From: Candidatus Bathyarchaeota archaeon
GTDB lineage: Archaea; Thermoproteota; Bathyarchaeia; Bathyarchaeales; Bathycorpusculaceae
Length of the DNA stretch: 64,000 bases
Direction of reading: 5' to 3'
Assembly: GCA_963833575.1 (NCBI GenBank)
Contig: CAWHXY010000006.1
Coordinates: forward strand, 288,861 to 352,860
Shown here: positions 5,011-47,125 of the stretch, one piece after another
Layout: each line of letters begins with the position of its first letter
How positions within the stretch are numbered: the first letter of the stretch is position 1
Notes under the pieces: generated by a model
What the model saw: only the letters and a program-made list of their open reading frames with translations
What the model was told of the DNA's origin: nothing
The model's database searches: none
Translations under genes and position numbers: made by a program

Positions 5011-5022
5011 GAAATCAGCAGA

Positions 5023-30912: not shown

Positions 30913-30915
30913 GTT

Positions 30916-31436: not shown

Positions 31437-31706
31437 TTGAAACTATTTGATAAAGAGAAAAAACCTGAGCCAAAACCAACTGTCAAAGTTGATTCTGAAC
31501 ATGCCTTTTGTCCTAATTGTCATACTCAATTTGAATCGGTAGGTCACATCAAAGATTATCAACCTTTGATGTATGTAGCAGAAGCAGAATACTACATACT
31601 TCAATGTCCTAATTGTAAAACTGTACGATTCTGTGGAGAACTTGATGGTGTAATGAAATACGGAATAGTCAGAAAACTTGAGATTATCCAATCAGATAAC
31701 CCTTAA
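31437..31706 (+). CDS. Small zinc-finger protein
   Basis: CPNCH...CPNCK; GGAG SD upstream of the TTG start. Confidence 0.65.
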   Translation: MKLFDKEKKPEPKPTVKVDSEHAFCPNCHTQFESVGHIKDYQPLMYVAEAEYYILQCPNCKTVRFCGELDGVMKYGIVRKLEIIQSDNP

Positions 31707-31953
31707 AAAGAGCGAAAAAGGGTTGAAGCTGTAAGTTAAAAGTGGCTTTTTACCGAAAGCCTCGAATAGGTGCAAATTCTTAAAACTGCATGGATACAAC
31801 TTAAGGCTTTAAAGAGGGCAATTTATCATAAGTAGTAATTGTTTATACCTGCAGAAAGGTCTCTTAAACAGCCCTCTCGACAGAATACCTTGACTTTCGA
31901 CCTCTACATTCTGGAGCGGTCTTAGCACAAAGGATTACGTAAAAGGTGGAAAA

Positions 31954-32796
31954 ATGTCGTTTAAAACAAACGCTAAAAAAGAAACAAAGGGCCCCTACAT
32001 TAAAGATTTTTCTGACATAGCAAAAGATTATGAAAAAATATCCCTTGTACAGAAATCAGCTGCAGAAATTCTATTTGCTATAATCAATATTAACAAAAAC
32101 GAAGACGTTTTAGACCTGGGGTGTGGAACAGGAAATTTAACTAAAAGAATAAGGGATATAACTTCTGGAAAGATAGAAGGAATCGACTCCGCAGAAAACA
32201 TGATTGCTCAGGCTAAAGACAATTATGAAAAATTCAAAATACAATTTAAAGTGTTGAAAGCCAAGGATATTAATTATGCTCGTGAATTCGATGTGATATT
32301 TTGCAATTCAGCTTTTCAATGGGTAACTGATCCGGAAAAAGTTATCAAGAATTGCTATAGGACATTAAGAAAAGGCGGAAGGATAGGAATTCAGGCTCCT
32401 GCAACAAATGAGTATAGCCCAACATTTATCCAGGCGGTGGAAAGTGTCAAACAAAATCCCGCAACAAAAGAAACATTTTTGCATTTTAAATCGCCCTGGT
32501 TTTTTATGGAGACTGCTTCTGAATATAAGAAATTATTCGAGAAGGCTGGTTTTACTGTAGCGTTATCTGAAATTAATACTCTCAAATCAAAACATACACC
32601 AGAAGAAGCATTCAAGATATTTAGTTCTGGAGCAGCAGTTGGCTATCTTAATGAAGATTGTTATTCAGTAGATTTAGATGAACGCTATGTTTCAAGTTTT
32701 AATAAACTGGTGAAAAAATATTTCGCATCGCAGATAGATGAAGATGGTCTTGTTGAAGTAATATTTAACAGGATTTTTCTAATTGCTATAAAATAA
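31954..32796 (+). CDS. Class I SAM-dependent methyltransferase (Tam/BioC-like)
   Basis: VLDLGCGTG, GIDSAENM, FDVIFCNSAFQW, LRKGG. Confidence 0.9.
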   Translation: MSFKTNAKKETKGPYIKDFSDIAKDYEKISLVQKSAAEILFAIININKNEDVLDLGCGTGNLTKRIRDITSGKIEGIDSAENMIAQAKDNYEKFKIQFKVLKAKDINYAREFDVIFCNSAFQWVTDPEKVIKNCYRTLRKGGRIGIQAPATNEYSPTFIQAVESVKQNPATKETFLHFKSPWFFMETASEYKKLFEKAGFTVALSEINTLKSKHTPEEAFKIFSSGAAVGYLNEDCYSVDLDERYVSSFNKLVKKYFASQIDEDGLVEVIFNRIFLIAIK

Positions 32797-32808
32797 AGAT
32801 GGTTTAAG

Positions 32809-32821
32809 ATTAAATTTTAAT
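32809..32821 (+). repeat. Left target-site duplication ATTAAATTTTAAT
   Basis: The same 13-mer occurs at 42836-42848 in direct orientation; each copy abuts a TIR. Confidence 0.8.
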
Positions 32822-33095
32822 GCACACACACACACACTTGTTCTACGATTAGTGGATTAAGGAAAGAGGCAGTAACCAGATTAATTAGCGGTCAAACCTA
32901 AAGAGAGCACGCTCAGTAGTCTAATACCACGTAGAGAAAGGGTACAAGGGGTTTTTTTATGCTGAAAATAGCCTTCAGAGGGGCTAAGCGTAGTATAATT
33001 ATCATATATACGAGGGGTACTTTTTTACTATTTTTTTACCCCTCGTTGGGCTATTAGGGGTAAAAAATTAAGAGAAAAATTTACCCCTCGCAAAG
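32822..33095 (+). repeat. Left terminal inverted repeat (274 bp)
   Basis: GCACACACACACACACTTGTTCTACG...TTACCCCTCGCAAAG is the reverse complement of 42562-42835; no mismatch found by eye. Confidence 0.95.
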
Positions 33096-33119
33096 CCAAA
33101 ATATACTTTTTTCTTTTAT

Positions 33120-33608
33120 TCACGTCTTAACTGGAACTAACCCAAGACGATTTGCTGATTCTTCTACTGCCTTGCATCTCCTTTCTTGAATCTCAGCATC
33201 GGCAGGTTTTAGATAAGGTTTTATAAAAGACACGATTTCTTCCACAGTCTTTGAATGAACTTCATCATGTTTACAAGTTCCAAATTTATCGTAAGTATAA
33301 CAATGAGCAAGCTCGTGTACGATTTCAATAATTAATGGGAATTCGAGAAGATGCACCTCTCTCTTTTTCAAGTCATAAGTTCCAACGGTCTCAGCATATT
33401 CAAGAGGTTGCTCCAATGTTCCATGACCATACCCAACTGTAAAATTGATTCCAAATTTTATTTTAATTAATTTTACTAAATCATGTCCTTCACGCCAATT
33501 AACTGCATAACAAAGTTCTGGAAATTTATTATGTTCTAATCTGTAATATCCAGATTCTAATGCTTTTTGATTCTCATATTCAATCTCATTATTTTCCATT
33601 TTACTCAC
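33120..33608 (-). CDS. Zincin-like HExxH metallopeptidase domain protein (SprT-like), element cargo
   Basis: IVHELAH motif followed by a third His (KHDEVH). Confidence 0.6.
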   Translation of the reverse strand: MSKMENNEIEYENQKALESGYYRLEHNKFPELCYAVNWREGHDLVKLIKIKFGINFTVGYGHGTLEQPLEYAETVGTYDLKKREVHLLEFPLIIEIVHELAHCYTYDKFGTCKHDEVHSKTVEEIVSFIKPYLKPADAEIQERRCKAVEESANRLGLVPVKT

Positions 33609-33742
33609 TTTCTATTGAAGCTACATTAATTTGCAATTTGCTTGTCTGTTATTATTTCTTAGTCATTAGTCAGTTGTCTTGGTTAATTAAATTTTGACTC
33701 ATACAATAACTCTTCGTTTTTGTGGCTAAAGGATTACAAAGT

Positions 33743-33801
33743 GGTCAAACCTAAAAGAGAATACGATCGGCAGTTACATATCTGGTAAGAGAAAAGGGTA
33801 C
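33743..33801 (+). repeat. Degenerate internal copy of TIR segment 32890-32945
   Basis: GGTCAAACCTAAAAGAGA...AGAGAAAAGGGTAC versus TIR GGTCAAACCTAAAGAGAG...AGAGAAAGGGTAC. Confidence 0.75.
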
Positions 33802-33818
33802 GGATGTTCAATTCTTAC

Positions 33819-34862
33819 TTAAATTTCTTTGATAAATTCCTTTTCGTCCAAGGCAAAGTTGGCAACAAGTTTTCGCCTTATCAAACGAACCCAATTATAA
33901 TACTTGTCTCTTCTCCAATTAAAGAGAAGCCATCGTGAAAACTTTGCTTGAAAGGTTATCTCAAAATCAGATGTAAAGAAATTTTCCTTATTATAATTAT
34001 TGTTTTCTTTAGTAAATATTCCATATGGCAAACCCATGTTAACGCCATGTTTTTGAATCGAGATAACTAACTTAAAGTAGGTATGATGAAAGTGGGTTTC
34101 TCTTGAGAATTTCTTTTGCAACGTTGAAATTTGTGTTCCTTTTGGGGTAACAATAACCCATCTATCAGGTTTGTATAAATAAAATAAAGTAGTTTTTCCA
34201 AGAAAATGCTCAATAATATCGTTATTTTTCAATATAGGTTTCAAGTTTTTGCATTCAAGATTTTTTAAACTAAATAAATCTATGAACTCTTTATCATCTT
34301 TTTGAAAGCGAAAAATAGTTGGGTCGTAACTGTAAATATTGTTTTCTACACCAAGACGGTCTGGATTTGTTGTGTATCCAAAATACTCATCTTTATTCGA
34401 AGCCCAAAAAAATTCATATCCTGAAAGAGTATTAAACAAAACATATTCCGCAAAATCGAACTCAATTTTATCATACGTAAAATCATGGAGCCTTGAAAGA
34501 ATTTGTTGAGAGTAACTCGATTTATCTGTAGATAACGCTTCCCAAAAAAGCGACGCATATTGAACCGCAAACGGGGAAAATTTTGAAAGGTGCAATCGGT
34601 TCTTAGTTTTATCAACCAAAATGTTCGTGTAGATTATAGTCTTAATTTTTTCTTCAGGATATACAATTATGTAGATAGAAACAAACGTAAGAATAATTAA
34701 TGGTATTATTAGTAAAAAACCAATTGAAAAACCGTAAAAATAGAAATTTGCTAAATAAGAAGCAACTATGTTAGAAATTAATCCTATTAAGATAACAACA
34801 ACAATTAACTGCATTATCTCTTTTTGTTTTATCGAAATTGTTGGTTCCAATTCTAAGTTCAA
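33819..34862 (-). CDS. Hypothetical protein with two N-terminal TM helices, element cargo
   Basis: 347-aa AT-rich ORF; no motif recognised. Confidence 0.7.
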   Translation of the reverse strand: MNLELEPTISIKQKEIMQLIVVVILIGLISNIVASYLANFYFYGFSIGFLLIIPLIILTFVSIYIIVYPEEKIKTIIYTNILVDKTKNRLHLSKFSPFAVQYASLFWEALSTDKSSYSQQILSRLHDFTYDKIEFDFAEYVLFNTLSGYEFFWASNKDEYFGYTTNPDRLGVENNIYSYDPTIFRFQKDDKEFIDLFSLKNLECKNLKPILKNNDIIEHFLGKTTLFYLYKPDRWVIVTPKGTQISTLQKKFSRETHFHHTYFKLVISIQKHGVNMGLPYGIFTKENNNYNKENFFTSDFEITFQAKFSRWLLFNWRRDKYYNWVRLIRRKLVANFALDEKEFIKEI

Positions 34863-34969
34863 CTTTCAGTACTTATTAGACCTGAGTAGTTTTTAAATCT
34901 GTGCAACATAGAAATCCTTAACATAGAAGACCTAAAAAGTTAGTTGTGTCCTATTTACATGAGTAGAAA

Positions 34970-35512
34970 ATGAATAAAAAAACTACTGCACAAGTTCTGA
35001 TTTGTTTAGCTATTATAATTCTTTTGTCAATTAGTCTCCTTGTCTTTATTTTTCCTAAATCAATAGGGATATCACAACAAGTGTTATCGCCCTCATCAAC
35101 TCCGTCATCAACTCCCTCATCAACACCTTCACCGACAACCGTGCCAATTAATGTATTTCCAAACCAAACCCAAAACATAGAGGTAAACTGCTTTAAAGTA
35201 CAAAATACCGCTGGTTATTATAACATAAATGTCACCGACCTAAGCGTGTGGCAATTAAATGTGGGAGATGTGCAACTGAGTGAATCAATTATTGATGCTG
35301 GTATTATACCTGGTCTGAATAGTCCACCGACCACTAATTTAGTTCCTCAAAGTTGTTTTACACTTAAACCAAATGAAACGGTTACACTTCTTTTCTCAAT
35401 CGACAAACTTACAACAACAATAACGAATCCTGTATCAGTAATTGTTCATTATTGGGTTGTTGATGGTGCTAATAGTTGTTATCAAGACTATGCGAGAGCA
35501 TTTAATCTATAA
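34970..35512 (+). CDS. Membrane-anchored secreted protein with SSTP linker repeats
   Basis: N-terminal TM/signal peptide, PSSTPSSTPSSTPSPT linker, beta-rich C-terminal domain. Confidence 0.7.
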   Translation: MNKKTTAQVLICLAIIILLSISLLVFIFPKSIGISQQVLSPSSTPSSTPSSTPSPTTVPINVFPNQTQNIEVNCFKVQNTAGYYNINVTDLSVWQLNVGDVQLSESIIDAGIIPGLNSPPTTNLVPQSCFTLKPNETVTLLFSIDKLTTTITNPVSVIVHYWVVDGANSCYQDYARAFNL

Positions 35513-35560
35513 CTTGTAACTTTGATAAGAAACTTATTTAGCATCCGAATCTAAAAAAAT

Positions 35561-36586
35561 TTATAGAGTAACTATTCGAGGATTCCACGCTTTTGATTCT
35601 CCCCTCAAATATTTAGCGAGTAGAAGAGCCTCTTCATTAATCAGTGTCTCTATCTCTTGCTGACTCCCTACCTTCATTCTCGGTATGCTAACTTTCGAGA
35701 GGAAATAATCGTTTAACTTGTTTGTAAACTCGTTAGATAAATCATCCTTCAGATATTGCCTTTTAGCTTTTTTGTTAGACCGCTTCTCAGTCTTGTAAGC
35801 GAAATCTCTTTTGTTAAGGTCTTTACAATATCCGATTATGAAGTCGTCAATCAAGTATCGGTACAATTCTTGGAAGTCACACGCCAAAGAAGGCTTACCG
35901 AACTGTAAGCTGTGCAGAAAGCCTAAGAATGGCTCTAACTTTGCCCTTAATAGGGCTATGTGGACTTTCCATCTTAGAATCTCGTAAGCTAAATTAAACG
36001 TATTATTCAAACCATCATAGGCTAAGAATGTCTTTCTACCTTGTGGTCTGATTTCGTTATCGAACATACCAAATATTTGGGAGAAATACTTTCGAGAATA
36101 TTTTGCCTCGTAGCACGTTAACATTCTTCTAAGAGTCTTTTCATCATCGGAATGAATAGCGTTAACTTCATCCCTAACGAACCCAATGGGCATTAATCCG
36201 TATTTCCTTAGAACTTTATCGTAGCCTTCAGCTTTAGCTATTACAAACTTCTTTGCAACCTCTTCGCCTATTCCATTCTTTAACGCTTCATACTGCATTA
36301 TCCTTGTTTTTACATGAGAATCATCATCGAGAGACTTCAAAATTGCTACTGGGTTCCCTTTCTGCGTAAGAATCAACACATCTATTCCAAAGTAACCGCA
36401 AGTCGCTAACGCTCCGCTACTTAGCATGTTCCCTGATGTTATCTTTATTTCCCCTATTTCTTTCTCGAAGAGGGGAAACAACGTTTCCTTCTTCTCTCTA
36501 TCTCTTAGCAATAAACTTCCGTGTTTAATTCCCAAGTAGTTTCCGTAACCACTCAGGTCGATTTTTAGTACTTTCGCTCCTTTCGT
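35561..36586 (-). CDS. cas1: Standalone Cas1 endonuclease (casposase)
   Basis: Catalytic E (YEAKYSRKYF), N..LNLAY, H (GFLH) and SLACDFQE. The frame extends upstream of TTG 36535 through the Cas1 N-terminal strand (KVLKIDLSGYGNYLG) to an ACG at 36586 preceded by GGGAG. Confidence 0.93.
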   Translation of the reverse strand, partial: TKGAKVLKIDLSGYGNYLGIKHGSLLLRDREKKETLFPLFEKEIGEIKITSGNMLSSGALATCGYFGIDVLILTQKGNPVAILKSLDDDSHVKTRIMQYEALKNGIGEEVAKKFVIAKAEGYDKVLRKYGLMPIGFVRDEVNAIHSDDEKTLRRMLTCYEAKYSRKYFSQIFGMFDNEIRPQGRKTFLAYDGLNNTFNLAYEILRWKVHIALLRAKLEPFLGFLHSLQFGKPSLACDFQELYRYLIDDFIIGYCKDLNKRDFAYKTEKRSNKKAKRQYLKDDLSNEFTNKLNDYFLSKVSIPRMKVGSQQEIETLINEEALLLAKYLRGESKAWNPRIVTL

Positions 36587-36741
36587 ATTTAGCTCCCTTC
36601 TACCTATATAGAAGGCGAAACGCTCTAAAAAGGCTTATTACGTAAAAAGGGGCAGTAATAAAGCTTTATTTTACTACGGAAACCTTTCTGCCAGCCTTTA
36701 GCTTTATCCGCTTGGATACTTTCCTTAGAAAGTAAAGATAA

Positions 36742-37056
36742 TTAGATATTTCGGTAGTGCCATCCGCCAGCTTGACCTCTGTTCCTTAGCGTAGTATGCT
36801 TCCATTTTAAATCTAAGGTGCTTCGGAACTTTCTAAATCTGCATTGAGTAGGATTAGAGAGCAGATTAGGGCATTTTACTTCTTCACAGAATTTTACCTT
36901 AATGAACTCGCCATCTAACATTTTATTACAGCACGGATGCCCCTTTCTATGCAGAGGGACACGTATCTGCATGTTCTCTCTCATTTTCTTCCTAATCTCT
37001 ATCGGAACATCGTTGAATGGATCGTTCAAGTCTATATTGTCACTTTCACTTGACAA
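36742..37056 (-). CDS. Cys-rich hypothetical protein (element)
   Basis: TTG start with GGTGA SD; HPCC...C..C..C. Confidence 0.55.
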   Translation of the reverse strand: MSSESDNIDLNDPFNDVPIEIRKKMRENMQIRVPLHRKGHPCCNKMLDGEFIKVKFCEEVKCPNLLSNPTQCRFRKFRSTLDLKWKHTTLRNRGQAGGWHYRNI

Positions 37057-37068
37057 ACAATCACCTTC

Positions 37069-37263
37069 CTATTTTATCTCTTCGAGAACCTTGTTTGAAA
37101 TTTTAGTTTTAGATAATCTCGTGGCTTTCTTTTTACAGAGAATACACTTTCTTCTTTTGTCAAGATTGGCTACGTTTCTATATCCTTTGACAGGATTATG
37201 GATAACGTAGAAAGCTAATTTCTCGAAATGCTCAGCACATAAACCAATTTTTATTTTGTTCAA
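37069..37263 (-). CDS. Small zinc-finger protein (element)
   Basis: LCAEH...CILC; GAGG SD upstream. Confidence 0.55.
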   Translation of the reverse strand: MNKIKIGLCAEHFEKLAFYVIHNPVKGYRNVANLDKRRKCILCKKKATRLSKTKISNKVLEEIK

Positions 37264-37575
37264 TTTATTCTTCCTCTTGTGTCACGCACTAACAGGCAGA
37301 ACTACATCTGCAAGGTGATGTAGCTGTATCAGAAACCCTCTCTACTTACCTGGCTAATGATTCGTGCAAATTATTTTAGAATATAAAAAAAGGGAAAATT
37401 GGTATGCTGTTCGCTACGACTGAAGCCTTTCTAAAACTTTCTTAGCTTTCGTTGTCAGAGTTTCTTCTTAGGATGGAATGCAGTCCACGATTTTGGGATA
37501 GGCGTTTGAGGAGAAGCGTTTTGTCCAAGAGACGTTTTTTCTCTACTCTTTCCCATTTTGTTAATCACTTCCTCT

Positions 37576-37839
37576 TTAGGCATTGTTACTTGTGATATCA
37601 AGTAACCGTCTGTTGCTTTGGATAGCTCCGAAACGTTTCTCTATTCTTCCGCAGTTTGTTTCTTCTACTCTGCTAAAATCGATTTTCTGTAGCACTACGA
37701 TGTAGACTTTTCCGAATTTATCTTGCGTAGCTTTCACTCTTGCTCCATAAACTGTGATTTCAGAAATCTTGTCATTACGTTCACTGAACTTGATGACCTC
37801 TTCGTGTGCTTTGTTTTGTACAAAAACTTTTCTAATCAG
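37576..37839 (-). CDS. Hypothetical 87-aa protein, CTG start overlapping the upstream stop (CTGA)
   Basis: Manual translation LIRKVFVQNKAHEEVIKF...DITSNNA*; open for 88 codons; GGAG SD; missed by the ORF track. Confidence 0.55.
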   Translation of the reverse strand: MIRKVFVQNKAHEEVIKFSERNDKISEITVYGARVKATQDKFGKVYIVVLQKIDFSRVEETNCGRIEKRFGAIQSNRRLLDITSNNA

Positions 37840-38237
37840 TCGCTCTCTCCTTTTTTAGGCTTTGTCGTAATCCTGATTTTGATTCTATCGAATAGTGACG
37901 GTTTCTGATTCTGAGGTACTGGAAACGAATCGTTTGGCAAAGTACCTTCAAGGCTCCCTTCGTATGGTGCGTTAATATTAGTATCCTTGTCTTTTTCGAG
38001 TTGTTCAAGTTGTTCCTTAGAAAGTTTGTAAGCTCCGATGTCTAATCCGTATAATCCTTGCTCTCTTTCGGATTCAATATCTTCGATGTTGTCAAGCATA
38101 CGATTCTTTTCTGCTTCGGTATTTAATGGAGAAATTCTTGGTAGATTATTCTTTAGAGCCTGATGGGAATGTGTAGGAATAAAGAAATGTTGCCCTTTTT
38201 GATTTCTCGAACCTTTCTTTCTTGTTCTCCATGGCAT
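37836..38237 (-). CDS. Hypothetical protein (element)
   Basis: ATG with GGAGTGA SD; basic N-terminus MPWRTRKKG. Confidence 0.7.
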   Translation of the reverse strand: MPWRTRKKGSRNQKGQHFFIPTHSHQALKNNLPRISPLNTEAEKNRMLDNIEDIESEREQGLYGLDIGAYKLSKEQLEQLEKDKDTNINAPYEGSLEGTLPNDSFPVPQNQKPSLFDRIKIRITTKPKKGESD

Positions 38238-38254
38238 GAATTATCACTCCTTTT

Positions 38255-38437
38255 TTAGGTTAAAATATCAACTATTCTGACTTCACCGACTGTCTGTAGA
38301 GCTTCGGTTGCGGTACGTTTCCATCGTAGCTTAAACATTTCAAAATCATTTACTAATTCTACTGGACTTTGAACCTTAATTTTAGCTACAACAAAAATGT
38401 GCCTTGTTTCTGTCAGTTCTTTATTTTGTTTCTCCAT
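38255..38437 (-). CDS. Hypothetical protein (element)
   Basis: ATG with GGAAGGTGA SD, in a tightly packed operon. Confidence 0.6.
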   Translation of the reverse strand: MEKQNKELTETRHIFVVAKIKVQSPVELVNDFEMFKLRWKRTATEALQTVGEVRIVDILT

Positions 38438-38477
38438 GCGTAATCACCTTCCTGTTTAGTAATCCAAAATTCTATTC

Positions 38478-38603
38478 TCAAATTACAGTAACTTTTCCAC
38501 AATCCCTGCAAACAAAAGAATTGTATCGGCGTGCTTCAAAATCGTAATAGTTCTCCTTGAGTTCTAACGTATTTTTAGAATTACAAAATTTGCAGTCAAC
38601 CAT
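38478..38603 (-). CDS. 41-aa zinc-ribbon protein (element)
   Basis: Manual translation MVDCKFCNSK...FVCRDCGKVTVI*; below the ORF-track cutoff. Confidence 0.6.
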   Translation of the reverse strand: MVDCKFCNSKNTLELKENYYDFEARRYNSFVCRDCGKVTVI

Positions 38604-38604
38604 T

Positions 38605-38820
38605 CTACTCTTCACCTTCCTCACTTTCATCTTCGTCATCTTCGTTTCGTTGCACTTTCTTCTTAGAGTAGGTTATGAGCACTTGACCTTTAATATTCAA
38701 AGATTCAATGCTTAGAATGTAGTGCTTGTCTAACTTCTTGAGAACTTCATTTAGTTCGTCTTCATCTGGATTGTTCAGTACCTTCGCTCTAACAATCGTT
38801 TTATCTCCCATTAAAATCAC
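38605..38820 (-). CDS. Hypothetical protein with acidic tail (element)
   Basis: GAGGTGA SD upstream of the internal ATG; C-terminal EDDEDESEEGEE. Confidence 0.6.
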   Translation of the reverse strand: MILMGDKTIVRAKVLNNPDEDELNEVLKKLDKHYILSIESLNIKGQVLITYSKKKVQRNEDDEDESEEGEE

Positions 38821-38832
38821 CTCACTCTTTTG

Positions 38833-39438
38833 TTAGTTACTTTCTTGTAACCAAGATTCGCCTAAGCCTTCGCAGGTATTTTTATGTTTAATGTAGGCGA
38901 CAATTCCCGTCATGTCTCCGTTGTTATAAAACCGAATTATTTCTGGTGGCGGAATTTTTTCGTTCTTAGAGTTAACTCGGATTGTTATTGTGCCGAAATC
39001 CCTTAACTTCGCAAAACTTCTGTTTATTATGCCTAATTTTTTTGTTTCGTTTATGTGCCACTGAATTTCTTTCCAAGTTAAAGGCTTACCAAATATTATG
39101 CAATAGTTCCCTAACCTATTCCCGAAAAGGTCAGTCTTTGTACTTTCGGAAGTCCTTAATACCATTAGGCTTCCTAACTTGTAGAACTCTGCGTATTCTT
39201 TAGCGAAGTCTAAAACGTAATATTCTATGAGGTCGTCAACGTCTAACATTAAGAAATTGCTTGAAGTAAATCCTAAGACTACGTTTCCTTCTGGCGTTGT
39301 ATCTTCGATAGCCTTGTTTCCAGTAAAATCTGCTTGATACCCTTTAGGTTCGCTACAGAAAAACTCTTGTTCCTTTCGTTTTTTCAGCTTAGCCTTATCG
39401 CCTAAGAGATTTAATTGTACGTCTTGGCTAACGCTCAT
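38833..39438 (-). CDS. Putative AEP/primpol-like protein (element)
   Basis: FLMLDVDD (hhhDhD), LRTS...GNYCIIF (motif II-like, His replaced by Cys), ITIRV...K. Similarity judged by eye only. Confidence 0.4.
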   Translation of the reverse strand: MSVSQDVQLNLLGDKAKLKKRKEQEFFCSEPKGYQADFTGNKAIEDTTPEGNVVLGFTSSNFLMLDVDDLIEYYVLDFAKEYAEFYKLGSLMVLRTSESTKTDLFGNRLGNYCIIFGKPLTWKEIQWHINETKKLGIINRSFAKLRDFGTITIRVNSKNEKIPPPEIIRFYNNGDMTGIVAYIKHKNTCEGLGESWLQESN

Positions 39439-39769
39439 ATACCATCCCTGGTTTGTAGAATTTAATTCGCTTAACCTTTATCCAAGGAGTACGCTGATGA
39501 AGCTCTCCAAAAGTGACTTCTTCACCGTTTTTAAGTAGCGGTATCATTTTGAAGTCTTTAATTCTGTTGCAGGTGAATCTAATCATCTTGTAATTCATTT
39601 TACCGCTTACACTGTTTGGGATTTTTACATGAAAGCTCTGACGCTTGCTGATTCCATTCTTCGTTTCGTAATTAACGTAGAACCTTGCGTACTGTTTCGG
39701 TCTGCCAATATGCCTTCGTAGATGAATAGGCAGCGGTCTAAGCTTTGGAACTTTTCTTCCTTCGCTCAT
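39428..39769 (-). CDS. Basic hypothetical protein (element)
   Basis: K/R-rich 113-aa ORF overlapping its neighbours; GAGGTG SD. Confidence 0.65.
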   Translation of the reverse strand: MSEGRKVPKLRPLPIHLRRHIGRPKQYARFYVNYETKNGISKRQSFHVKIPNSVSGKMNYKMIRFTCNRIKDFKMIPLLKNGEEVTFGELHQRTPWIKVKRIKFYKPGMVYER

Positions 39770-39941
39770 GTCTATGCACCTCTCTTTTTAGGTTAGATTC
39801 TTTTTTTGGCATAGTCCCTATAGGAACTAAATCGCCATCTTCTAAGGAAACATCCGAAGTGTCAAAAGGTGGCTTAGTCCTAATCTCGTTAGGCTTAGCG
39901 TATCTTCTGTTTCCGTCTTTGTCAATTATAATCCAACGCAT
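39738..39941 (-). CDS. Hypothetical protein (element)
   Basis: ATG with GGAG upstream, in operon. Confidence 0.55.
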   Translation of the reverse strand: MRWIIIDKDGNRRYAKPNEIRTKPPFDTSDVSLEDGDLVPIGTMPKKESNLKREVHRHERRKKSSKA

Positions 39942-40029
39942 AGCTTTCGCTAATCTCCTAATCGTTTTGTTTTCTAAAAAAACTCAGTTTGTTCTAATTT
40001 TTCTTTTTTGGGACTAAAGCGGTAAGTTC

Positions 40030-40974
40030 TCAGGCTTTCTTACCACATGAATCTCTCCACTTGTAGAACTGGTACGAATTTTGTAATGGATTCATTTTTA
40101 AATTGACCCAATTAGAAAGAAATCTCATCAATTCAATGTCTTCATCGTTAACGCTATCTCTGCCATCACGCAAAGCACTACACTTTGTCATTGTTCTAAT
40201 AATCTTAAACAGCCGTATCCCTTTAATTTCAAAATTCCTTAGTCTTTCGTTATACCCTCGCTTAATGTCCTGCGTAATTAAATATAGCTCTCTACCATAC
40301 TTCTCTGAAATTTTTATATCATAACGTTTTTTGAACTCATGAATTTTTATGTTTTTAACGAAATCTTTGGTATCTTTTTGCAAAATAAGAGAATCAAACA
40401 CTGAAGCGAGTACAGATTCAGGGACATCAAAACTAAAGACTAAAGGTCTTGAAAAGAATCCACCACGATACAGTTTAGCTTTGACCATTTTCTTTCCAAC
40501 AGTAAACATTCCAAGCGTGTTTATTGCGGCAATTATTCCCCCTCTTGCTCCTTTGTACTTTTTCATTTCATCAGGGAATATTGCGTAAGTACTTTCATTA
40601 GAAAGCCCTTCCTCTGTCAACGCATTTATGAACTCTATAGTTGACTCAATAGTATTCTCTTTGAATGAGAACATTGAATTGAAATCATAAACTATCGTTG
40701 TCGGAAGAATTTTAGGATTCTCGAATAGAAGCTTTATTTTCCCAGATATCAAATCCCGTTGGTAGCCATGAGCGGTGAATCTTCGCATAACTTGAATACT
40801 TTTACTATTGCAAGCGAACTTTTTTAGAGCCTCTGTCCTTCCAGATTCGGCTTCACTCAATAATAATAAGCTGACAGGTTTTTCGTTCTTTACGTAAACT
40901 GATAATGCCGCAAGTTCTATTGCGTCAAATACAGGTTCTAATCCAATTAATTCGGTTTTTTTCAAGTGTTTCAC
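40030..40974 (-). CDS. MCM-like AAA+ ATPase (putative helicase) of the element
   Basis: LLLLSEAESGRT (degenerate Walker A), IVYDF (Walker B), ALTEEG, IIAAIN (sensor 1), FFSRP (Arg finger), GIRLFKIIR..CSALRDGRDSVNDEDI (sensor-2 helix of the MCM/MoxR/chelatase clade). Confidence 0.65.
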   Translation of the reverse strand: MKHLKKTELIGLEPVFDAIELAALSVYVKNEKPVSLLLLSEAESGRTEALKKFACNSKSIQVMRRFTAHGYQRDLISGKIKLLFENPKILPTTIVYDFNSMFSFKENTIESTIEFINALTEEGLSNESTYAIFPDEMKKYKGARGGIIAAINTLGMFTVGKKMVKAKLYRGGFFSRPLVFSFDVPESVLASVFDSLILQKDTKDFVKNIKIHEFKKRYDIKISEKYGRELYLITQDIKRGYNERLRNFEIKGIRLFKIIRTMTKCSALRDGRDSVNDEDIELMRFLSNWVNLKMNPLQNSYQFYKWRDSCGKKA

Positions 40975-41036
40975 CTACTTTTAAGTTTTTTAAGAAATGG
41001 ATAATCCTGAGTTTTCGGGTTCTTCCGAATATCAAT

Positions 41037-41238
41037 TCAGCAGTTGTTCTTTAGAATCTGGCGTACTACTTTCGCTGGCACTATCACGTTATGGGTACAA
41101 GTTGGGCACTTGAACATTTTATCGCCTTTATTTTTATGATTACGCCACAGCCTTGGGTCTGGTGCCCACCTATAGCCACACTTTTCACTTCTGCACCTAA
41201 CATATACCTTTTTTTTCGTTTCTCTCGTTTTTCAGCAT
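41037..41238 (-). pseudogene. Zinc-ribbon gene frameshifted in an A8 tract
   Basis: GAGGAG SD and ATG at 41238. Removing one A from the A8 run (T8 at 41209-41216) fuses it to VYVRCRSEKCGYRW...FKCPTC...*. Confidence 0.55.
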
Positions 41239-41513
41239 CTCCTCTGTTTTTTATTTTATTTGTTTTTTCAAAACCCTCTCTGACTGTATTTTTTAGATTT
41301 AGTTAAAATTTGCTTGAGCCTCGCAAAGCTCCGAGAGCTACTTTCTCGTTCTCTTCTACCTTTACCATAGGCTTGCGGTTATTTAAACCTTTTCCCAAGG
41401 CGGAAATCGGAAATCCGCTAAGTTTTCTGCTTCTTTTCACCATTAAATCCTGAATAGTGACACAAATATTCTACACAAAAGCTAATGCACACTGACTCTA
41501 AGTAAAAATAGCG

Positions 41514-41987
41514 TTATACTGAGCTGACAACATTAGGAACTATGACAGTTATTCTTGCTTTGTGACCTATCAAATGTTTATCTACTGTTAGCTGAATTCT
41601 TCCGCAATGATAGAGCTTACCTTTAGATTTGACCTTGTGTTTTTTTATCCGTACTTCGTAAGAGTGAATCGTAAACTTTCCTTTCTGCTCTATATCGTGT
41701 TCTACTGTTTCTTTTAGCATTATTTCTTCTTTTGGTGATTCCCAAATAAATTGTGAATAATTCCTTTTCATGATTTCAAGGTTGTCTCGGTAAGTCCCTA
41801 AGTTGTCGAGTAAGTCTAACTCTATATACTCTTCAAACTCTAACTCTGGATTAAGTTTTCTGAAAAGCTTCTCAATCATGTGAATCTGCAATCCCCATGG
41901 CATTATTCTGTAATTCTTCTTGCTGTGTCTTCGCATAATTAAAGTAAATGTAAAAAGAAGTGTAAAAGTTTTACTAAAACTATTCAC
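41514..41987 (-). CDS. Hypothetical protein with C-terminal AbrB/DUF2080-like swapped-hairpin motif (element)
   Basis: GRIQLTVDKHLIGHKARITV; the likely start is the internal MRRHSKK. Confidence 0.5.
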   Translation of the reverse strand: MNSFSKTFTLLFTFTLIMRRHSKKNYRIMPWGLQIHMIEKLFRKLNPELEFEEYIELDLLDNLGTYRDNLEIMKRNYSQFIWESPKEEIMLKETVEHDIEQKGKFTIHSYEVRIKKHKVKSKGKLYHCGRIQLTVDKHLIGHKARITVIVPNVVSSV

Positions 41988-42050
41988 ACTAATTTAGAGT
42001 CTTACGCCTTAATTAAGCAAAGAACGTATTAGATTTATTGAGAAAGAAAG

Positions 42051-42518
42051 ATGTTCGATTTTGCATTTGCTGTTGCCGTTGCATTAATCGCTCCATTACT
42101 TGCAACACATTACTATTTTAAAGACAAAATTAAAAAAGAATTTGAAAAAAGGAAAAGCAAATATTCTGAGACTATGGCGAAAAATCAAGTTGACGGGTTC
42201 AAAGCTCTTATACAGAAGTATGGGACTTCTGAAATTCCGCCCTACGATAAGTTTGAAGAATATTACTGTGACCTTTACAAGAAACAATTTGAAGGATTAG
42301 ACGATATTACCGAAGCTCTAAGACTTGAGAATTTCCTAAATAATACCCTGTTCTTTTTCTTTAGTGCTATAGCTTTATTCTTGCTTGCAGGGATTTTCCC
42401 TTATGTTGCTACGTCGGATTTTACTCTTGCAGGTTTTTCCGTTCCTTCCATGATTGGCGGAGTAATAGCAACGATAATGGCATGTTTTAGAATCTACCAA
42501 ATTGAGAAGATATTATAG
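42051..42518 (+). CDS. Hypothetical membrane protein (3 TM), element cargo
   Basis: One N-terminal and two C-terminal hydrophobic helices. Confidence 0.7.
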   Translation: MFDFAFAVAVALIAPLLATHYYFKDKIKKEFEKRKSKYSETMAKNQVDGFKALIQKYGTSEIPPYDKFEEYYCDLYKKQFEGLDDITEALRLENFLNNTLFFFFSAIALFLLAGIFPYVATSDFTLAGFSVPSMIGGVIATIMACFRIYQIEKIL

Positions 42519-42561
42519 AACATGCCGTTTGGATTAGTTTCGGATAAAAGTGAAATTAGTC

Positions 42562-42835
42562 CTTTGCGAGGGGTAAATTTTTCTCTTAATTTTTTACCCC
42601 TAATAGCCCAACGAGGGGTAAAAAAATAGTAAAAAAGTACCCCTCGTATATATGATAATTATACTACGCTTAGCCCCTCTGAAGGCTATTTTCAGCATAA
42701 AAAAACCCCTTGTACCCTTTCTCTACGTGGTATTAGACTACTGAGCGTGCTCTCTTTAGGTTTGACCGCTAATTAATCTGGTTACTGCCTCTTTCCTTAA
42801 TCCACTAATCGTAGAACAAGTGTGTGTGTGTGTGC
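42562..42835 (-). repeat. Right terminal inverted repeat (274 bp)
   Basis: Reverse complement of 32822-33095. Confidence 0.95.
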
Positions 42836-42848
42836 ATTAAATTTTAAT
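42836..42848 (+). repeat. Right target-site duplication ATTAAATTTTAAT (shared with second element)
   Basis: Identical to 32809-32821. Confidence 0.8.
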
Positions 42849-42976
42849 GCACACACACATTTTCCAACGGTCAGTAGCTCAAGGAATTTCAGCGGCAAAA
42901 CGTAAACGCATAAAAGAATACTCACGCTCAATAGGAAAATAATGTACGTATAAACGCTAAGAGTACATTTCAATGT

Positions 42977-43013
42977 GTTCCAAAGTGGGAACGGTATGTT
43001 CCACGAATAGAAC
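42977..43013. promoter_or_regulatory. Two GTTC-N8-GAAC palindromes 21 bp apart (putative operator)
   Basis: GTTCCAAAGTGGGAAC (42977-42992) and GTTCCACGAATAGAAC (42998-43013), upstream of 43071. Confidence 0.4.
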
Positions 43014-43070
43014 TAAATATTCTGTTAACCAAGAAATTTGTCAAGGCAAATAAGAGCATAGGCGGAATTA

Positions 43071-44279
43071 TTGGCTGTGTCACATGAGGCTAAACAGCAA
43101 GTATTGAAGAAAAGTGAAGCGGTCAAATCAGGAACCTTTGTATTAGTCTTAACCCTTTTCTCTATTCTCTTAGCCGCCAATTCAGTTCATGCTATTGAAG
43201 TTACCGCCACAGTACCCGTAGGTTCAGCCCCAAATGCGGCAGTGTATGACTCTGGAAGGGGGGAAGTATTTGTTGCCAATGCTGGATCAAATAGTGTCTC
43301 TGTCATCTCCGATGCCAACAACTCTTTGATTGCAACTATTGCTTTGCCGTCTGATTCTCCGAGCCCAAGCGATATAGCCTATGATTCTATCACCGGAGAA
43401 ATATTCGTGGTGAATAATCCCGTCGACAATTTTTTTGCTAGCAGCACCATCTCGGTAATAACTGACACAACTAACAGCATTGTTACCACCATAAACTTGG
43501 GATTCAATAATGTTGTTGGAATTTGCTACGACTTGAACATGAGAGACATAGTTGTAGCCAGCCAAAACCCAGGCGGTCCAGTAGGTCCTGTAACTTTCAT
43601 TTCCGACAGCAGCTATAGCGTAGCGTCGACAGTCAATGTTGGAGGTCATCCTCAAGGGATAGTTTACGACTCAGACAAGAGAGAAATCTTCGTATCCACT
43701 GAAGGAGACACAAACTCTTGGGTCTCTGTAATTCCAGACTATTCAAACACTGTTATTGCAAATGTAACTGTTCAAAATGTTCCCATCGGGTTAGCTTATG
43801 ATTCTGGCAAAGGGGAAATATTTTTAGCAAGCGTAGGGACACCCGAACTTGTCAATCCTGAGTCGGGGGTTACTGTTATTTCAGACCAGACCAACACTGT
43901 GGTAGCATCTATTCCTATGTCTGAAGGTACGGTAAACTTGGCTTATGACAGTAAGCAAGGATTGATATTCGTCTGCCATGCTGGTGAAAACAATGTTGTT
44001 TCGGTAATATTGGACAGCAACAACTCTGTGATTGCGAATGTAACTGTAGAAAACTCTACACTGTGGGGTCTATGTTATGACTCTGCAAAAAGCGAAATAT
44101 TCGCAACGAATCCTTACAACGCGACAATTACGGTAATTTCTGACCAGTTGGCGACTACTGCCCCGACAACAACGCCATCTTCAACTCCTACCGTTCCAGA
44201 GTTTCCAACTTTGATAATTCTGCCATTTTTTGCTATTGTAATACTACTATCACTTGTTTCTAAGAAAATTAGAGATTAA
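43071..44279 (+). CDS. YVTN/YncE beta-propeller surface protein with PEF-CTERM sorting signal
   Basis: Seven YDS..GEIFV.N...VSVISD..N.V repeats, Thr/Pro linker, VPEFPT followed by TM and a basic tail. Confidence 0.88.
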   Translation: MAVSHEAKQQVLKKSEAVKSGTFVLVLTLFSILLAANSVHAIEVTATVPVGSAPNAAVYDSGRGEVFVANAGSNSVSVISDANNSLIATIALPSDSPSPSDIAYDSITGEIFVVNNPVDNFFASSTISVITDTTNSIVTTINLGFNNVVGICYDLNMRDIVVASQNPGGPVGPVTFISDSSYSVASTVNVGGHPQGIVYDSDKREIFVSTEGDTNSWVSVIPDYSNTVIANVTVQNVPIGLAYDSGKGEIFLASVGTPELVNPESGVTVISDQTNTVVASIPMSEGTVNLAYDSKQGLIFVCHAGENNVVSVILDSNNSVIANVTVENSTLWGLCYDSAKSEIFATNPYNATITVISDQLATTAPTTTPSSTPTVPEFPTLIILPFFAIVILLSLVSKKIRD

Positions 44280-44523
44280 CGATTCGGGGATTCCAAGTTT
44301 TTGTTTCTCCTCTAAAATATTAGCGAGCAATAGACCCTCTTCATTAATCAGCGTTTCTATCTCTTGCTGATTTCCTACCTTCATTCTCGGTAATCTAACT
44401 TTCGAGAGGAAATAATTGTACAGCTTATTTGTAAACTCGTTAGCCAAATAATGTTTCATATATTGTCGTTTAGCTTTTTTGTTAGACCGTTTCTGAGTCT
44501 TGTAAGCGAAATCCCTTTTTCAA
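44269..44523 (-). pseudogene. cas1: cas1 3'-terminal relic
   Basis: KRDFAYKTQKRSNKKAKRQYMKHYLANEFTNKLYNYFLSKVRLPRMKVGNQQEIETLINEE closely matches the C-terminus of the 35561 Cas1; 1-nt frameshift before YFRGETKTWNPRIVNL*. Confidence 0.9.
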
Positions 44524-44656
44524 AGGTGTATGTTTTCTTTCGCCTGTTTGGTTAGGAAAATTCCCAAAGCAGAAAGAGGGGTTTACTTCATTTGAGTGCG
44601 TAAGACTTAAACAGTTATTAGTCTTTAACCAAAACAAGTTTACGGAGTCACTAATC

Positions 44657-47125
44657 ATGCAACCTATGCCTAAGGAATACAATTTCACAGAGATTGAGCG
44701 TAAGTGGCAGCAAAAATGGGAAGAAATGGGCATTTATCATTATGATTGGAACGACAAAAAGCGCATTCCTTTCAGCATAGATACCCCACCGCCTTATCCC
44801 TCGGGCGAATTGCACATGGGCAACGTTTTGAATTGGACCTACTTTGACATGGTTGCCAGATTCAAACGCATGCAAGGCTTCAACGTGCTTTTCCCCCAGG
44901 GCTGGGACTGCCACGGTTTAGGCATAGAAATTCAAGTTGAAAAAGCAAGAAATATCCGGAAACGCGATGTACCTCCAGACCAGTTCCGTGAATGGTGTAT
45001 TGAAACGGTAGAAAAATACATCTCTATGATGAAGGAAGGCATACTGAAAATGGGTGCAAGCATAGACTGGACCACCGAATACAAAACGATGGATCCGGAC
45101 TATTGGCGTAGAACCCAACTAAGTTTTATTTTACTTTACAAAAAAGATTACATGTACCGAGGCACTCATCCAGTAAATTGGTGTCCAAGAGATGAAACAG
45201 CCATCGCAGATGCAGAAGTCGACCATATTAAAAAGGAAGGCACCCTTCATTACATACGCTTCCAACTGGAAGGCAGCAATGAATATTTGCTAATCGCGAC
45301 TTCACGTCCCGAATTCATACCCGCATGCGTCGCTGTGGAAGTTAACCCAAAAGATGAACGCTACAACAAATACATAGGCAGAAAAATCGCTGTTCCCCTC
45401 GTGAACCGCGAAGTAACCATCATTAGCGAAGAATCGGTAGATCCATGCTTTGGCACGGGCGTTGTTCAAATTTGCACTTACGGCGACAAAGAAGACGTAA
45501 AAACAGTCATAAAACATAAACTGCCAGTTATCCGCCTATTAACCGAAAGCGGCAAAATCAGCGAGGCAGGCTGCAAATACGCTGGCTTATACGTTAACCA
45601 AGCACGCGCAGCCATCGTTGCAGACTTAACTGCAGCGGGCTTACTTGAGAAGAGTGAGAAGATTCAGCAGGAAGTTGGCGTCTGCGATCGATGCAAAGCG
45701 CAAGTCGAGATTTTAGAGGTTAAACAATGGTTCATGAAAACCCTTCCATTATCTGAAGCAGTAGAGAAGAACGCCAACGAGATTCCATGGTATCCAGATT
45801 ACATGAAAAACCGCTTAATAGACTGGACAAGGGCGCTGGATTGGGATTGGGTTGTTAGCCGCCAAAGATTATTTGCTACGCCAATTCCAGTTTGGTACTG
45901 CAAGAGTTGTGGTGAAGTCATCGTTGCAAAGGAAAGCTGGGTGCCAATTGACCCAAGAATGGAAAAACCTAGAATTGACAAATGCCCTAAATGTGGTGGA
46001 ACCGAATTCAATGGTGAAGCTGATGTGTTGGATACTTGGATGGATTCCTCAATTACCTGTGCTGTCCATGCTGGCTGGCCCGACCGAGCTGATTGGAAAC
46101 ACTTGTTCCCTGCAAGCATGCACCCATCAGGCACAGACATCATCCGAACCTGGGCATACTACCTCATGGTACGCCACTTAGCCTTATTCGATGAACGCCC
46201 ATTCAACAGCGTCCTCATAAACGGCATGGTGCTGGGCGCAGACGGCAGAAAAATGAGCAAATCGCTCAAAAACTATGCTGCTGCACCCGAAGTGCTAAAC
46301 AAAAACGGAGCTGACGCCACAAGACAATGGGCAGCTGGCGGAGGAGCAACAGGCTCAGACATTCCCTACCGCGCCCAAGATATTGAGTACGGCAGACGCT
46401 TCTTAGTGAAACTGTGGAATGCTTCAGGTTTCACAAGCAACCTTCTAGCAGACTACAAGCCTGATCCAAAAGCAGATTTGGACCTTCAGCCCCTCGACAA
46501 ATGGATACTCAGCAAAGCCGAAAACGTGACAAAGAAGGTTACTGAGGCGTTTGAAAAATGCCAATTTAACATTGCCGTTGAAGACGTACGGAATTTCACA
46601 TGGCATGTTTTCTGTGATTATTATGTTGAAGCCGTTAAGGACAGGCTCTATAATCCGAATCCTGATTTGGATGGACAAGCTAAAAAGTTGGCCGCTCAAT
46701 TTACACTCTACGAAGTTCTTTACCGCATGCTGCAACTGCTAGCACCCGTTACCCCCCACATTACTGAAGAAATATACCAACACATGTTTGCTGAAAACAA
46801 GGGTTTCGAAAGCTTGCAGATTTCACAATGGCCGAAGTTCAACGCTCAACTTGTTAATGAACAAGCAGAAAAGAACGGCAACTTACTTATTGCCATCATC
46901 GGAGAAGTGCGTCATGACAAAGCAGAGAAAAAACTTCCACTAAACGTACCAATAAAAAACCTAATTGTTTATGCGGGCAATGACGAAAACGCGAAAGTAA
47001 TCACGTCAGCCAAAGGAGACATCTCTGGAACCTTGAAGCTATCAAACATTCAAGTTCTGGCCGAAAAAAGTGGTGAAGGACGTCAAGTTGGCTCTACCGA
47101 TGTTCGTGTCAAAGTTGAATATTGA
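44657..47125 (+). CDS. valS: Valine--tRNA ligase (archaeal type)
   Basis: DTPPPYPSGELHMGN, GWDCHG, WVVSRQR, DTWMDSS, KMSKS. Confidence 0.96.
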   Translation: MQPMPKEYNFTEIERKWQQKWEEMGIYHYDWNDKKRIPFSIDTPPPYPSGELHMGNVLNWTYFDMVARFKRMQGFNVLFPQGWDCHGLGIEIQVEKARNIRKRDVPPDQFREWCIETVEKYISMMKEGILKMGASIDWTTEYKTMDPDYWRRTQLSFILLYKKDYMYRGTHPVNWCPRDETAIADAEVDHIKKEGTLHYIRFQLEGSNEYLLIATSRPEFIPACVAVEVNPKDERYNKYIGRKIAVPLVNREVTIISEESVDPCFGTGVVQICTYGDKEDVKTVIKHKLPVIRLLTESGKISEAGCKYAGLYVNQARAAIVADLTAAGLLEKSEKIQQEVGVCDRCKAQVEILEVKQWFMKTLPLSEAVEKNANEIPWYPDYMKNRLIDWTRALDWDWVVSRQRLFATPIPVWYCKSCGEVIVAKESWVPIDPRMEKPRIDKCPKCGGTEFNGEADVLDTWMDSSITCAVHAGWPDRADWKHLFPASMHPSGTDIIRTWAYYLMVRHLALFDERPFNSVLINGMVLGADGRKMSKSLKNYAAAPEVLNKNGADATRQWAAGGGATGSDIPYRAQDIEYGRRFLVKLWNASGFTSNLLADYKPDPKADLDLQPLDKWILSKAENVTKKVTEAFEKCQFNIAVEDVRNFTWHVFCDYYVEAVKDRLYNPNPDLDGQAKKLAAQFTLYEVLYRMLQLLAPVTPHITEEIYQHMFAENKGFESLQISQWPKFNAQLVNEQAEKNGNLLIAIIGEVRHDKAEKKLPLNVPIKNLIVYAGNDENAKVITSAKGDISGTLKLSNIQVLAEKSGEGRQVGSTDVRVKVEY

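Follow-up and report, generated by a model that had tools for sequence, protein, structure and literature searches.

The interval between the host genes thiT and valS of a Bathyarchaeota archaeon is very likely a pile-up of Cas1-mobilised elements stacked on one 13-bp near-palindromic target, in which an element with intact ends (element 1) inserted after its decayed right-hand neighbour (E2). The interval lies in a 64,000-nucleotide (nt) stretch of contig CAWHXY010000006.1, which we call the window and to which all coordinates without a prefix refer; a third member, the end relic E0, lies to the left of element 1. The genome of the window is designated G000, and the other G numbers denote genomes of the same genus. 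An earlier note, made from the window alone, had suggested that an older and decayed related element begins exactly at the duplication which it shares with element 1, so that one target was used again. Our analysis supports this suggestion, although not the polarity that the note attached to it.

The gene content and the ends of element 1 provided insights into the kind of element involved. Casposons, as Krupovic and colleagues are said to have defined them in 2014, combine a Cas1 integrase encoded apart from cas2 and from CRISPR arrays, terminal inverted repeats (TIRs) with a target site duplication (TSD), and a family B DNA polymerase (PolB) of their own. Element 1 encodes a Cas1 integrase that is apparently unlinked to cas2 or CRISPR, and its identical 274-nt TIRs are flanked by a 13-bp direct repeat, ATTAAATTTTAAT. 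No Cas2 was found in the list of open reading frames (ORFs) or in the Pfam and NCBIfam searches of the 11 ORFs of at least 100 aa on the gene strands of the element. Meanwhile, element 1 has no PolB of its own. Its longest ORF measures 347 aa, and the PF00136 matches of the genome are confined to C7:294k, C4:1113k and C6:202k, all outside the element; a genome search with PF03175 gave a single match below the cut-off, at C7:295k. Pfam and NCBIfam recognised no recombinase other than Cas1 in element 1. The Cas1 protein itself (341 aa) matched no helix-turn-helix (HTH) family in either database, and a phmmer search of the PDB placed it at about the same distance from a CRISPR Cas1 (4n06, E 2.6e-12) and from the casposase of M. 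mazei (6opm, E 1.6e-10). Elsewhere within element 1, a piece of 56-61 nt at 33740-33801 matches two stretches next to 13-mers, C6:286376-286436 (85%) and C4:334063-334118 (80%).

Directly after the right copy of the 13-mer the sequence restarts with GCACACACACA, as the earlier note had reported, and the exact direct repeat is thus 24 nt long (32809-32832 = 42836-42859), which is longer than the 13-mer. Two further likenesses to the TIR that the note had listed were recovered as described, namely 19/27 positions between 42860-42886 and 32838-32864 and 11/12 between 42923-42934 and 32908-32919. The significance of the similarity beyond the CA tract varies with the scoring scheme. A strict local alignment of 42860-43070 with the TIR returned a 12-mer only and was not significant (342/1000 shuffles), and an ungapped-leaning score was weak, being reached by 75/1000 shuffles and by 74/1954 real segments of the window. 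A collinear gapped alignment of 42860-42975 with 32838-32960 (scoring 2/-2/-5/-1) was equalled by two of 1000 shuffles and one of 1954 real segments, and with scoring 5/-4/-10/-1 the same two regions gave an alignment that none of the 1000 shuffles and none of the 1954 real segments reached. The similarity beyond the CA tract, which the earlier note had staked against shuffled controls, therefore passed the gapped tests, and it did so against real sequence as well.

The end of E2 is closer to element ends elsewhere in its own genome and in two relatives than to the TIR of element 1. The region 42834-43017 matches C4:326916-327105 with 77% identity over 194 nt (E 1.9e-27), and the E2 end is 74% identical over 133 nt to an element end of G001 and 84% identical over 96 nt to one of G002. 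Each of these three matches begins at the 13-mer or a close variant of it, at most one mismatch away in G001 and G002, and the blocks CAGCGG..AAAC and CACGCTCA(A/G)TAG are common to these ends and to the TIR of element 1. The gapped controls together with these homologous intermediates at 13-mers show that a true end of an element, one of a related subfamily, extends from 42849 to about 43020. Within this end, upstream of the gene for a 402-aa protein, 42976-43019 holds an inverted-repeat box, GTTCC..GGAAC, followed by GTTCCAC. At 82-88% identity the box is also present in at least seven other genomes of the genus and at C4:326916-327016, and it may be a regulator site with which element ends of this type are equipped.

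The interior of E2 also resembles that of element 1. A surface-protein gene on the + strand is convergent with cas1, and we confirmed that this layout is the one seen at 34970-36586 in element 1. The protein has an N-terminal hydrophobic leader, and its beta-propeller repeats (TIGR02276 E 2.5e-16, Pfam NHL) precede a Thr/Pro/Ser linker and a C-terminal hydrophobic tail or anchor; a chromosomal homologue with 67% identity occurs in G016 without element parts nearby. The following region, 44259-44527, is 84.9% identical over 271 nt to 35550-35820, which comprises the 3' end of the cas1 of element 1 and the downstream spacer. At the protein level the relic corresponds to residues 257-336 of 341 with 74% identity, and it contains one TGA and a 1-nt indel in its coding part. 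Homology to cas1 stops at 44527, and homology to host DNA (the end of the Acyl_transf_3 gene of G012, Pfam E 1.1e-28, and the region upstream of valS) begins at 44540. E2 thus breaks off within cas1, where it is joined to a cut host gene, and has neither a right TIR nor a right TSD. The relic that the earlier note had ended at 44523 is thus present, while its actual end falls at about 44527-44539. Both tandem members are casposon-derived, E2 by its homologous terminus and its cas1 3' relic, and they are separated by a single common TSD, the one 13-mer at 42836-42848.

We compared the thiT-valS interval in 10 genomes from the upper part of the valS identity ranking, in which 54 genomes of the genus had a match, G000 aside. 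Homology to the relatives on the thiT side ends at 31002-31064. In G058, G060 and G066 about 70 bp separate the thiT leader region from the ATG of valS, and the spacer between the two genes holds about 190 bp in G010, one gene (an acyltransferase) in G012 and about 1 kb with small ORFs in G020; G004, G053, G016 and G044 have 3.8-7.9 kb of other DNA at this place. The segment 42849-44539 occurs between thiT and valS in 0/10 relatives, and none of the ten intervals has the sequence of 42849-43000, which the earlier note expected to be missing from relatives that carry no element. Since it is missing between thiT and valS in the ten relatives, the block from about 31065 to 44535 is inserted DNA and the interval a hot spot. 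G044 is the only one of the ten with casposon parts at this locus, and they are unlike those of the window: a cas1 3' relic on the opposite strand, a 172-aa ORF, and a TIR that matches that of element 1 with 88% identity in its inner part but has a (CT)n tip. After these come a 14-nt variant of the 13-mer and a further element tip. The 172-aa ORF was considered as a relative of the 180-aa protein of element 1 and rejected (E 5.4).

The 13-mer ATTAAATTTTAAT is a palindrome except for its central base. With the 13-mer included, the inverted repeat of element 1 matches at 286/287 positions, the single mismatch being that central base, and the junction at 42820-42859 forms a palindrome of about 35-40 bp. 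Because the 13-mer is near-palindromic, element 1 alone cannot separate a duplication from a part of the element end. An intact 4.6-kb Cas1 element in G082 (126-nt TIRs, 97.6% identity) is flanked by a direct repeat that is not palindromic, ACTAAACTTTCGC, which agrees with a target duplication rather than with an inverted end. The intact elements of G016 (one of 8.5 kb and one of 5.3 kb, the latter with the variant GTTAAAATTTAAT) and of G076 (5.8 kb) likewise have the 13-mer on both sides, as ATTAAA(A/T)TTTAAT, and their tips are poly(A), (CCCAAA)n and (CT)n. Intact relatives measure only 4.6-8.5 kb, in line with the absence of PolB.

Across 78 genomes of the genus the exact 13-mer has 293 occurrences (at least one in 55 genomes) against 48 for the reversed control. 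G000 has five, where 0.3-1.1 are expected under Markov orders 0-4. Allowing one mismatch, G000 holds 26 sites, of which about 16 bear a simple-repeat tip on one or both sides, 5-6 of them on both. These flanks were judged by eye; an automatic classing by two degenerate motifs and G content was dropped as too loose, most of its 'A' calls being apparently spurious. The tips found next to the 13-mer in G000, G016, G044, G071, G076 and G082 comprise (CA)n, (CT)n, (CCAA)n, (CCCAAA)n, poly(A) and poly(C). Inner TIR sequences can be nearly alike while the tips differ, as in the 88% match between element 1 and the G044 relic, and the tips seem to turn over faster than the remainder of the ends.

A third copy of the target and a further element end lie to the left of element 1. 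The 13-mer variant ATTAAATTTTGAT is followed there by CTTTCTCTCTCT, a tip equal to that of the intact Cas1 element of G076; with the 13-mer included, the two are 96% identical over 27 nt. In addition, both TIRs of the intact G082 element match 31267-31336 about equally far from the tip, with 82% identity across 71 nt. The repeat search of the window found no inverted partner (right TIR) for this relic, E0. The methyltransferase gene between its end and element 1 is either cargo of E0 or unrelated inserted DNA.

Table 1. Features of the thiT-valS interval, in window coordinates
Feature	Position	Strand	Description
thiT, left host anchor	30355-30951	-	NCBIfam TIGR02357 ECF_ThiT E 4e-44
Third 13-mer copy	31199-31211	+	ATTAAATTTTGAT, 1 mismatch
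E0, relic of an element end	31212-31340	+	(CT)n tip
S-adenosylmethionine (SAM) methyltransferase gene	31954-32796	+	Between the end of E0 and element 1; Pfam Methyltransf_31 E 8e-23
Left TSD copy, element 1	32809-32821	+	13-mer ATTAAATTTTAAT
Element 1	32822-42835		Bounded by perfect 274-nt TIRs
Left TIR, element 1	32822-33095	+	274 nt, G(CA)7C tip, inverted repeat
cas1 (casposase), element 1	35561-36586	-	Pfam Cas_Cas1 E 6.7e-36; TIGR00287 E 2e-41; 341 aa
Right TIR, element 1	42562-42835	-	Inverted repeat partner of 32822-33095
TSD common to element 1 and E2	42836-42848	+	13-mer ATTAAATTTTAAT
E2 left terminus, decayed	42849-43020	+	G(CA)5 tip; motifs CAGCGG..AAAC and CACGCTCAATAG
E2 cargo gene	43071-44279	+	402-aa secreted YVTN/NHL beta-propeller protein, intact ORF
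E2 cas1 3' relic	44269-44527	-	About the last 85 codons; 1 TGA and 1 frameshift
Putative deletion breakpoint	44528-44539		12 nt belonging to neither side
Host DNA	44540-44656	+	3' remnant of Acyl_transf_3 gene (whole in G012) and valS upstream region
valS, right host anchor	44657-47125	+	NCBIfam valine-tRNA ligase E 5e-290

Based on this anatomy, we postulate the following course of events. E2 (42849 to about 44530) would be the left arm of an older related element, retaining a decayed TIR, the surface-protein gene and the convergent 3' end of cas1. One deletion would have taken the 5' part of its cas1, the replication genes, the right TIR and the right TSD, together with most of the host acyltransferase gene. 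Element 1 would later have entered the 13-mer at the left edge of E2 and duplicated it, leaving one copy that is now common to both. That element 1 inserted and duplicated the 13-mer is inferred from the anatomy and from known casposase chemistry, in which staggered attacks on both sides of a 13-15-bp target are followed by fill-in. With E0 standing to the left of element 1, the insertion would have been into the middle of an existing stack. What the choice of target seems to require is therefore the 13-mer, possibly flanked by G/C on either side, rather than a leader on one side. One-armed relics probably persist because selection would keep the cargo side and tolerate the loss of the casposase and replication side, a loss that would do the host no harm or benefit it. 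A soil metagenome contains E2-like pieces at 91-98% identity (3-13 differences per contig of 151-199 nt), which are about as alike as its valS piece.

The earlier note had also read the succession of TSD, element, TSD and element as a CRISPR-like array, with the youngest element on the left and a leader just left of 32809. The stacking on a shared TSD holds, and the idea itself is already in print (PMC4779613, PMC9939771; here and below, statements on published systems refer to excerpts of the papers). The polar ordering is not supported. From left to right the locus has relic E0, then the young element 1, then relic E2, so that the youngest member is not at an end wherever a leader is placed, and the sequence left of 32809 contains another 13-mer (31199-31211) and an element end. 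The pair of element 1 and E2 by itself cannot test polarity, since the right TSD of E2 was lost and its left copy is the sole one remaining. We found no conserved leader beside a first repeat: the flanks of array ends in G000 and its relatives, compared by eye, are alike merely in G/C next to the 13-mer, flanks with which a leader of 3 bp or less would remain compatible. The newest insert is not at a leader end either, as seen both in the order of E0, element 1 and E2 and in an internal unit difference between an array on C4 and its counterpart in G044. Taken together, the evidence speaks against a one-ended, leader-directed array.

We thus consider it distinctly unlikely that a leader left of 32809 sends each insert to the proximal 13-mer with age rising rightward. 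Such an array would place a young element to the left of a decayed E2, as is seen here, and the casposases of A. boonei and N. koreensis do need leader bases beside the TSD (PMC8464041, PMC9939771). However, E0 with a 13-mer of its own lies left of the supposed leader, the deletion of the right TSD of E2 left no choice between copies, the G000/G044 difference is internal to an array, and the target is near-palindromic, with no sequence visibly common to the listed non-element flanks. The N. koreensis leader, moreover, comprises 3 bp only and is mirrored on the spacer side, and the attack is unordered (PMC8464041). An unlikely but somewhat more tenable alternative is that E2 is not the older member: it may be a defective one-armed or non-autonomous unit that integrated in trans, possibly after element 1, or it may have arrived truncated. 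Units without Cas1 are common between 13-mers, about 26 of about 41 Cas1 loci in the genus hold the 3' part alone, and the N. koreensis casposase integrates many ends that are not TIRs (PMC8464041). Nevertheless, the truncated side of E2 adjoins a truncated host gene without a 13-mer, which fits a deletion and not an integration, and the soil metagenome pieces, short as the contigs are, suggest that E2 is common to a relative.

Two other readings concern the nature of the junction. One holds that there is no second element, the CA tract being a longer duplication or a microsatellite and the remainder chance plus a stray cas1 fragment. The weak ungapped similarity (75/1000 and 342/1000 shuffles) would agree with it, but it is refuted in practice by the gapped controls, by three independent homologous termini beside the 13-mer or a close variant, and by the retained convergent layout of cargo and cas1; a 24-nt TSD would also make the TIRs of element 1 unequal by 11 nt. 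The other takes the 13-mer not for a TSD but for the core of a site for site-specific recombination or hairpin resolution of element ends, a possibility suggested by its near-palindromic sequence, by its position beside every element of the family and by the long palindrome of the junction. This reading appears very improbable, as neighbouring elements have one copy in common and not two, the G082 element has a direct 13-mer repeat that is not palindromic, its length equals the TSD of a family 1 casposase, measured at 13 bp (PMC8464041), and Cas1 is the only recombinase that Pfam and NCBIfam recognised in element 1.

Several observations weigh against the preferred reading, the stacking of element 1 onto an older E2 at a re-used target. 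An unoccupied 13-mer between thiT and valS was not found in the relatives in which the matching position was viewed (G053, G004, G016 and G044). The empty relatives carry merely a similar box, GTTATATTTTAGT, and with no empty 13-mer at the locus the first insertion is not traced. Nor was an allele found that has E2 without element 1. Two metagenome scans, one for the left flank with the 13-mer and tip and one for the 13-mer with the start of E2, gave 0 matches; the fragmentary contigs showed no such joints, and the stretches that they do not cover are uninformative. The assembly consists of 8 contigs with 94% completeness. No independent reads span the junction of element 1 and E2 with 31 nt on both sides, and the sole contig across it has 14 nt of the tip of element 1 and may derive from the source sample. 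The view of E2 as a once whole element is drawn from an element whose right end is absent, and its greater age from decay rather than from a date. E0, too, has no right TIR, and its right edge falls exactly at the 13-mer, which random deletion does not explain. Finally, element 1 has an ACG in the start region of cas1 (36535-36586), at the position that holds the first residue of five homologues of 341-342 aa (M in four and V in one, in an alignment of the N-termini), and the first ATG, GTG or TTG follows 17 codons downstream. The casposase may therefore be silenced or use an unusual start, and element 1, lacking a canonical start codon in cas1, may be non-autonomous now.

Relics such as E2 and stacks such as this one are found throughout the genus. 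Cas1 proteins of the type of element 1 have more than 2100 relatives in the database at E <= 1e-10, mostly of 341-345 aa, and matches occur in 30/78 genomes of the genus. After two weak matches (26-31% identity) were set aside as apparently other kinds of Cas1, we counted about 41 loci by hand from the search table: about 26 have the 3' part only (a start at residue 198 or beyond and an end at residue 336 or beyond), 8 cover the full length, two of these with stops, and 7 are partial in other ways. The usual fossil of this Cas1 family is thus a one-armed relic of the E2 kind. The 3'-only fragments hold the last 50-140 codons, and 18 of them are free of stops, their open frames ending just upstream of the homology. 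Such open fragments might be retained for a function, for instance damping integration; their prevalence could come from selection on cargo, from biased deletion or integration, or from a function of the fragment. One relic in the genome of the window, C4:205416-205772, adjoins two genes for beta-propeller proteins of about 900 aa.

Short stacks of 13-mers are common, all with simple-repeat tips, with five copies in 3.6 kb (G071:C31; G013:C56) and four in 3 kb (G071:C15). G000 itself has an array on C4 (C4:325828-335541), in which seven copies with at most one mismatch lie within 9.7 kb. One of its units is a 1.1-kb piece that combines an E2-type end with a 292-aa ORF; another, of 7 kb, encodes an 884-aa PQQ-like beta-propeller protein. 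A 337-bp solo TIR and a 985-bp unit that has a (CT)n tip at either side are also among them. The 337-bp solo-TIR unit, together with a 13-mer, stands in G000 between two units that are adjacent in G044; the 13-mers flanking it differ at 2/13 positions, and the difference may be a gain or a loss. The array of G044 that matches this C4 array, rather than the thiT-valS locus of that genome, also holds the closest relative of element 1 in G044 (1-8215 of the piece fetched from C25). Its Cas1 is 81% identical and has 2 stops, the same 104-aa gene lies upstream, and its tip is followed by the 13-mer and a directly repeated 12-mer.

Tandem casposons on one duplication have already been published, in Methanosarcina in 2016 and in Nitrosopumilus in 2019. 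In Methanosarcina, tandem copies of which one is inactivated were read as repeated use of a sequence-specific target (Krupovic et al. 2016, PMC4779613). The family 2 tandem of Methanosarcina sp. 2.H.T.1A.x and 2.H.A.1B.4 is thus alike in its stacking on a shared target with one inactivated copy. Those elements, however, carry PolB and an HTH-bearing casposase and sit at tRNA-Leu or an intergenic site, whereas element 1 has no PolB; here, the older copy consists of a one-armed stump, there is a third relic, and many loci use this target. Likewise, NitNF5-C1 and NitNF5-C2 of Ca. Nitrosopumilus adriaticus are two unlike casposons of an archaeon in tandem at one target, the ef-2 gene (Krupovic et al. 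2019, PMC6563490). Both belong to family 1; unlike element 1, they encode a PolB, which is protein-primed, and their target is a gene's 3' end.

The family 1 casposase of Ca. N. koreensis AR1 integrates sequence-specifically with a 13-bp TSD (Wang et al. 2021, PMC8464041). Positions A1, A11 and T13 are important in its target, and all three are present in ATTAAATTTTAAT; the casposase has no HTH, its leader bases are mirrored on the spacer side, and its attacks are not strictly ordered. Its target differs (ATTGATAAAGAGT with a TTT leader), and the likeness is one of TSD features. Meanwhile, the 'family 5' casposases comprise archaeal Cas1 proteins that stand alone, have their catalytic residues conserved and lack an HTH; most are without PolB, and some have TIRs (Salgado et al. 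2022, PMC9755687). That family was defined by a tree of hot-spring sequences, as a clade beside the Cas1 of subtype I-A. Element 1, which lacks PolB, is a candidate member, and the excerpts of PMC9755687 mention neither a TSD or target nor any tandem arrangement. Tn7 attachment-site islands and CRISPR arrays also form stacks of repeat, insert and repeat by using one site repeatedly (PMC4779613). Tn7 relies on TnsD and attTn7, and CRISPR arrays are polar, with a leader and short spacers, whereas the inserts here are whole or broken elements without polarity. A 2023 review states that head-to-tail casposons were expected by analogy with CRISPR, and found (PMC9939771). Full-text literature searches combining casposons with miniature inverted or non-autonomous elements and with Bathyarchaeota gave no account of such pile-ups. 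What is less familiar here is the PolB-less family, the use of a single 13-mer target across the genus, and the pile-ups of many units.

Tandem casposons are cited as a natural bridge from transposon insertion to CRISPR spacer acquisition, and this locus offers a clean case from a little-described family of Cas1 elements without a polymerase. With three stacked members and the newest in the middle, it argues that re-use of the target here needs the duplicated 13-mer alone and no leader. A broader proposal, which we put forward as possible but doubtful, is that this polymerase-less Cas1 family builds non-polar stacks of repeat, insert and repeat, in which the 13-bp near-palindrome parts whole elements, one-armed relics, solo TIRs and cassettes without cas1, and any copy can take the next insert. 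If true, these stacks would form a living link from a casposon to a CRISPR array or to a gene-capture site of the integron type, and would also deliver surface-protein genes. If casposases did build the pile-ups, they would provide a testable system for repeat-insert arrays that precede polarity or a function in immunity, and may show how elements leave useful surface-protein genes in the host chromosome.

Other genes of the window were considered as well. The methyltransferase next to E0 was ruled out as a conserved neighbour, being present in 2/61 genomes of the genus (G000 included), with the other copy 49% identical and at a different locus. Transfer RNA genes play no role at the locus, the sole one in the window being tRNA-Lys at 50687. 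The Acyl_transf_3 gene is whole in G012 (502-1617 of the fetched piece) and reduced to a 3' stub in the window (44540-44600) and in G010. As the stub occurs in G010 without a casposon there, this acyltransferase gene was lost more than once.

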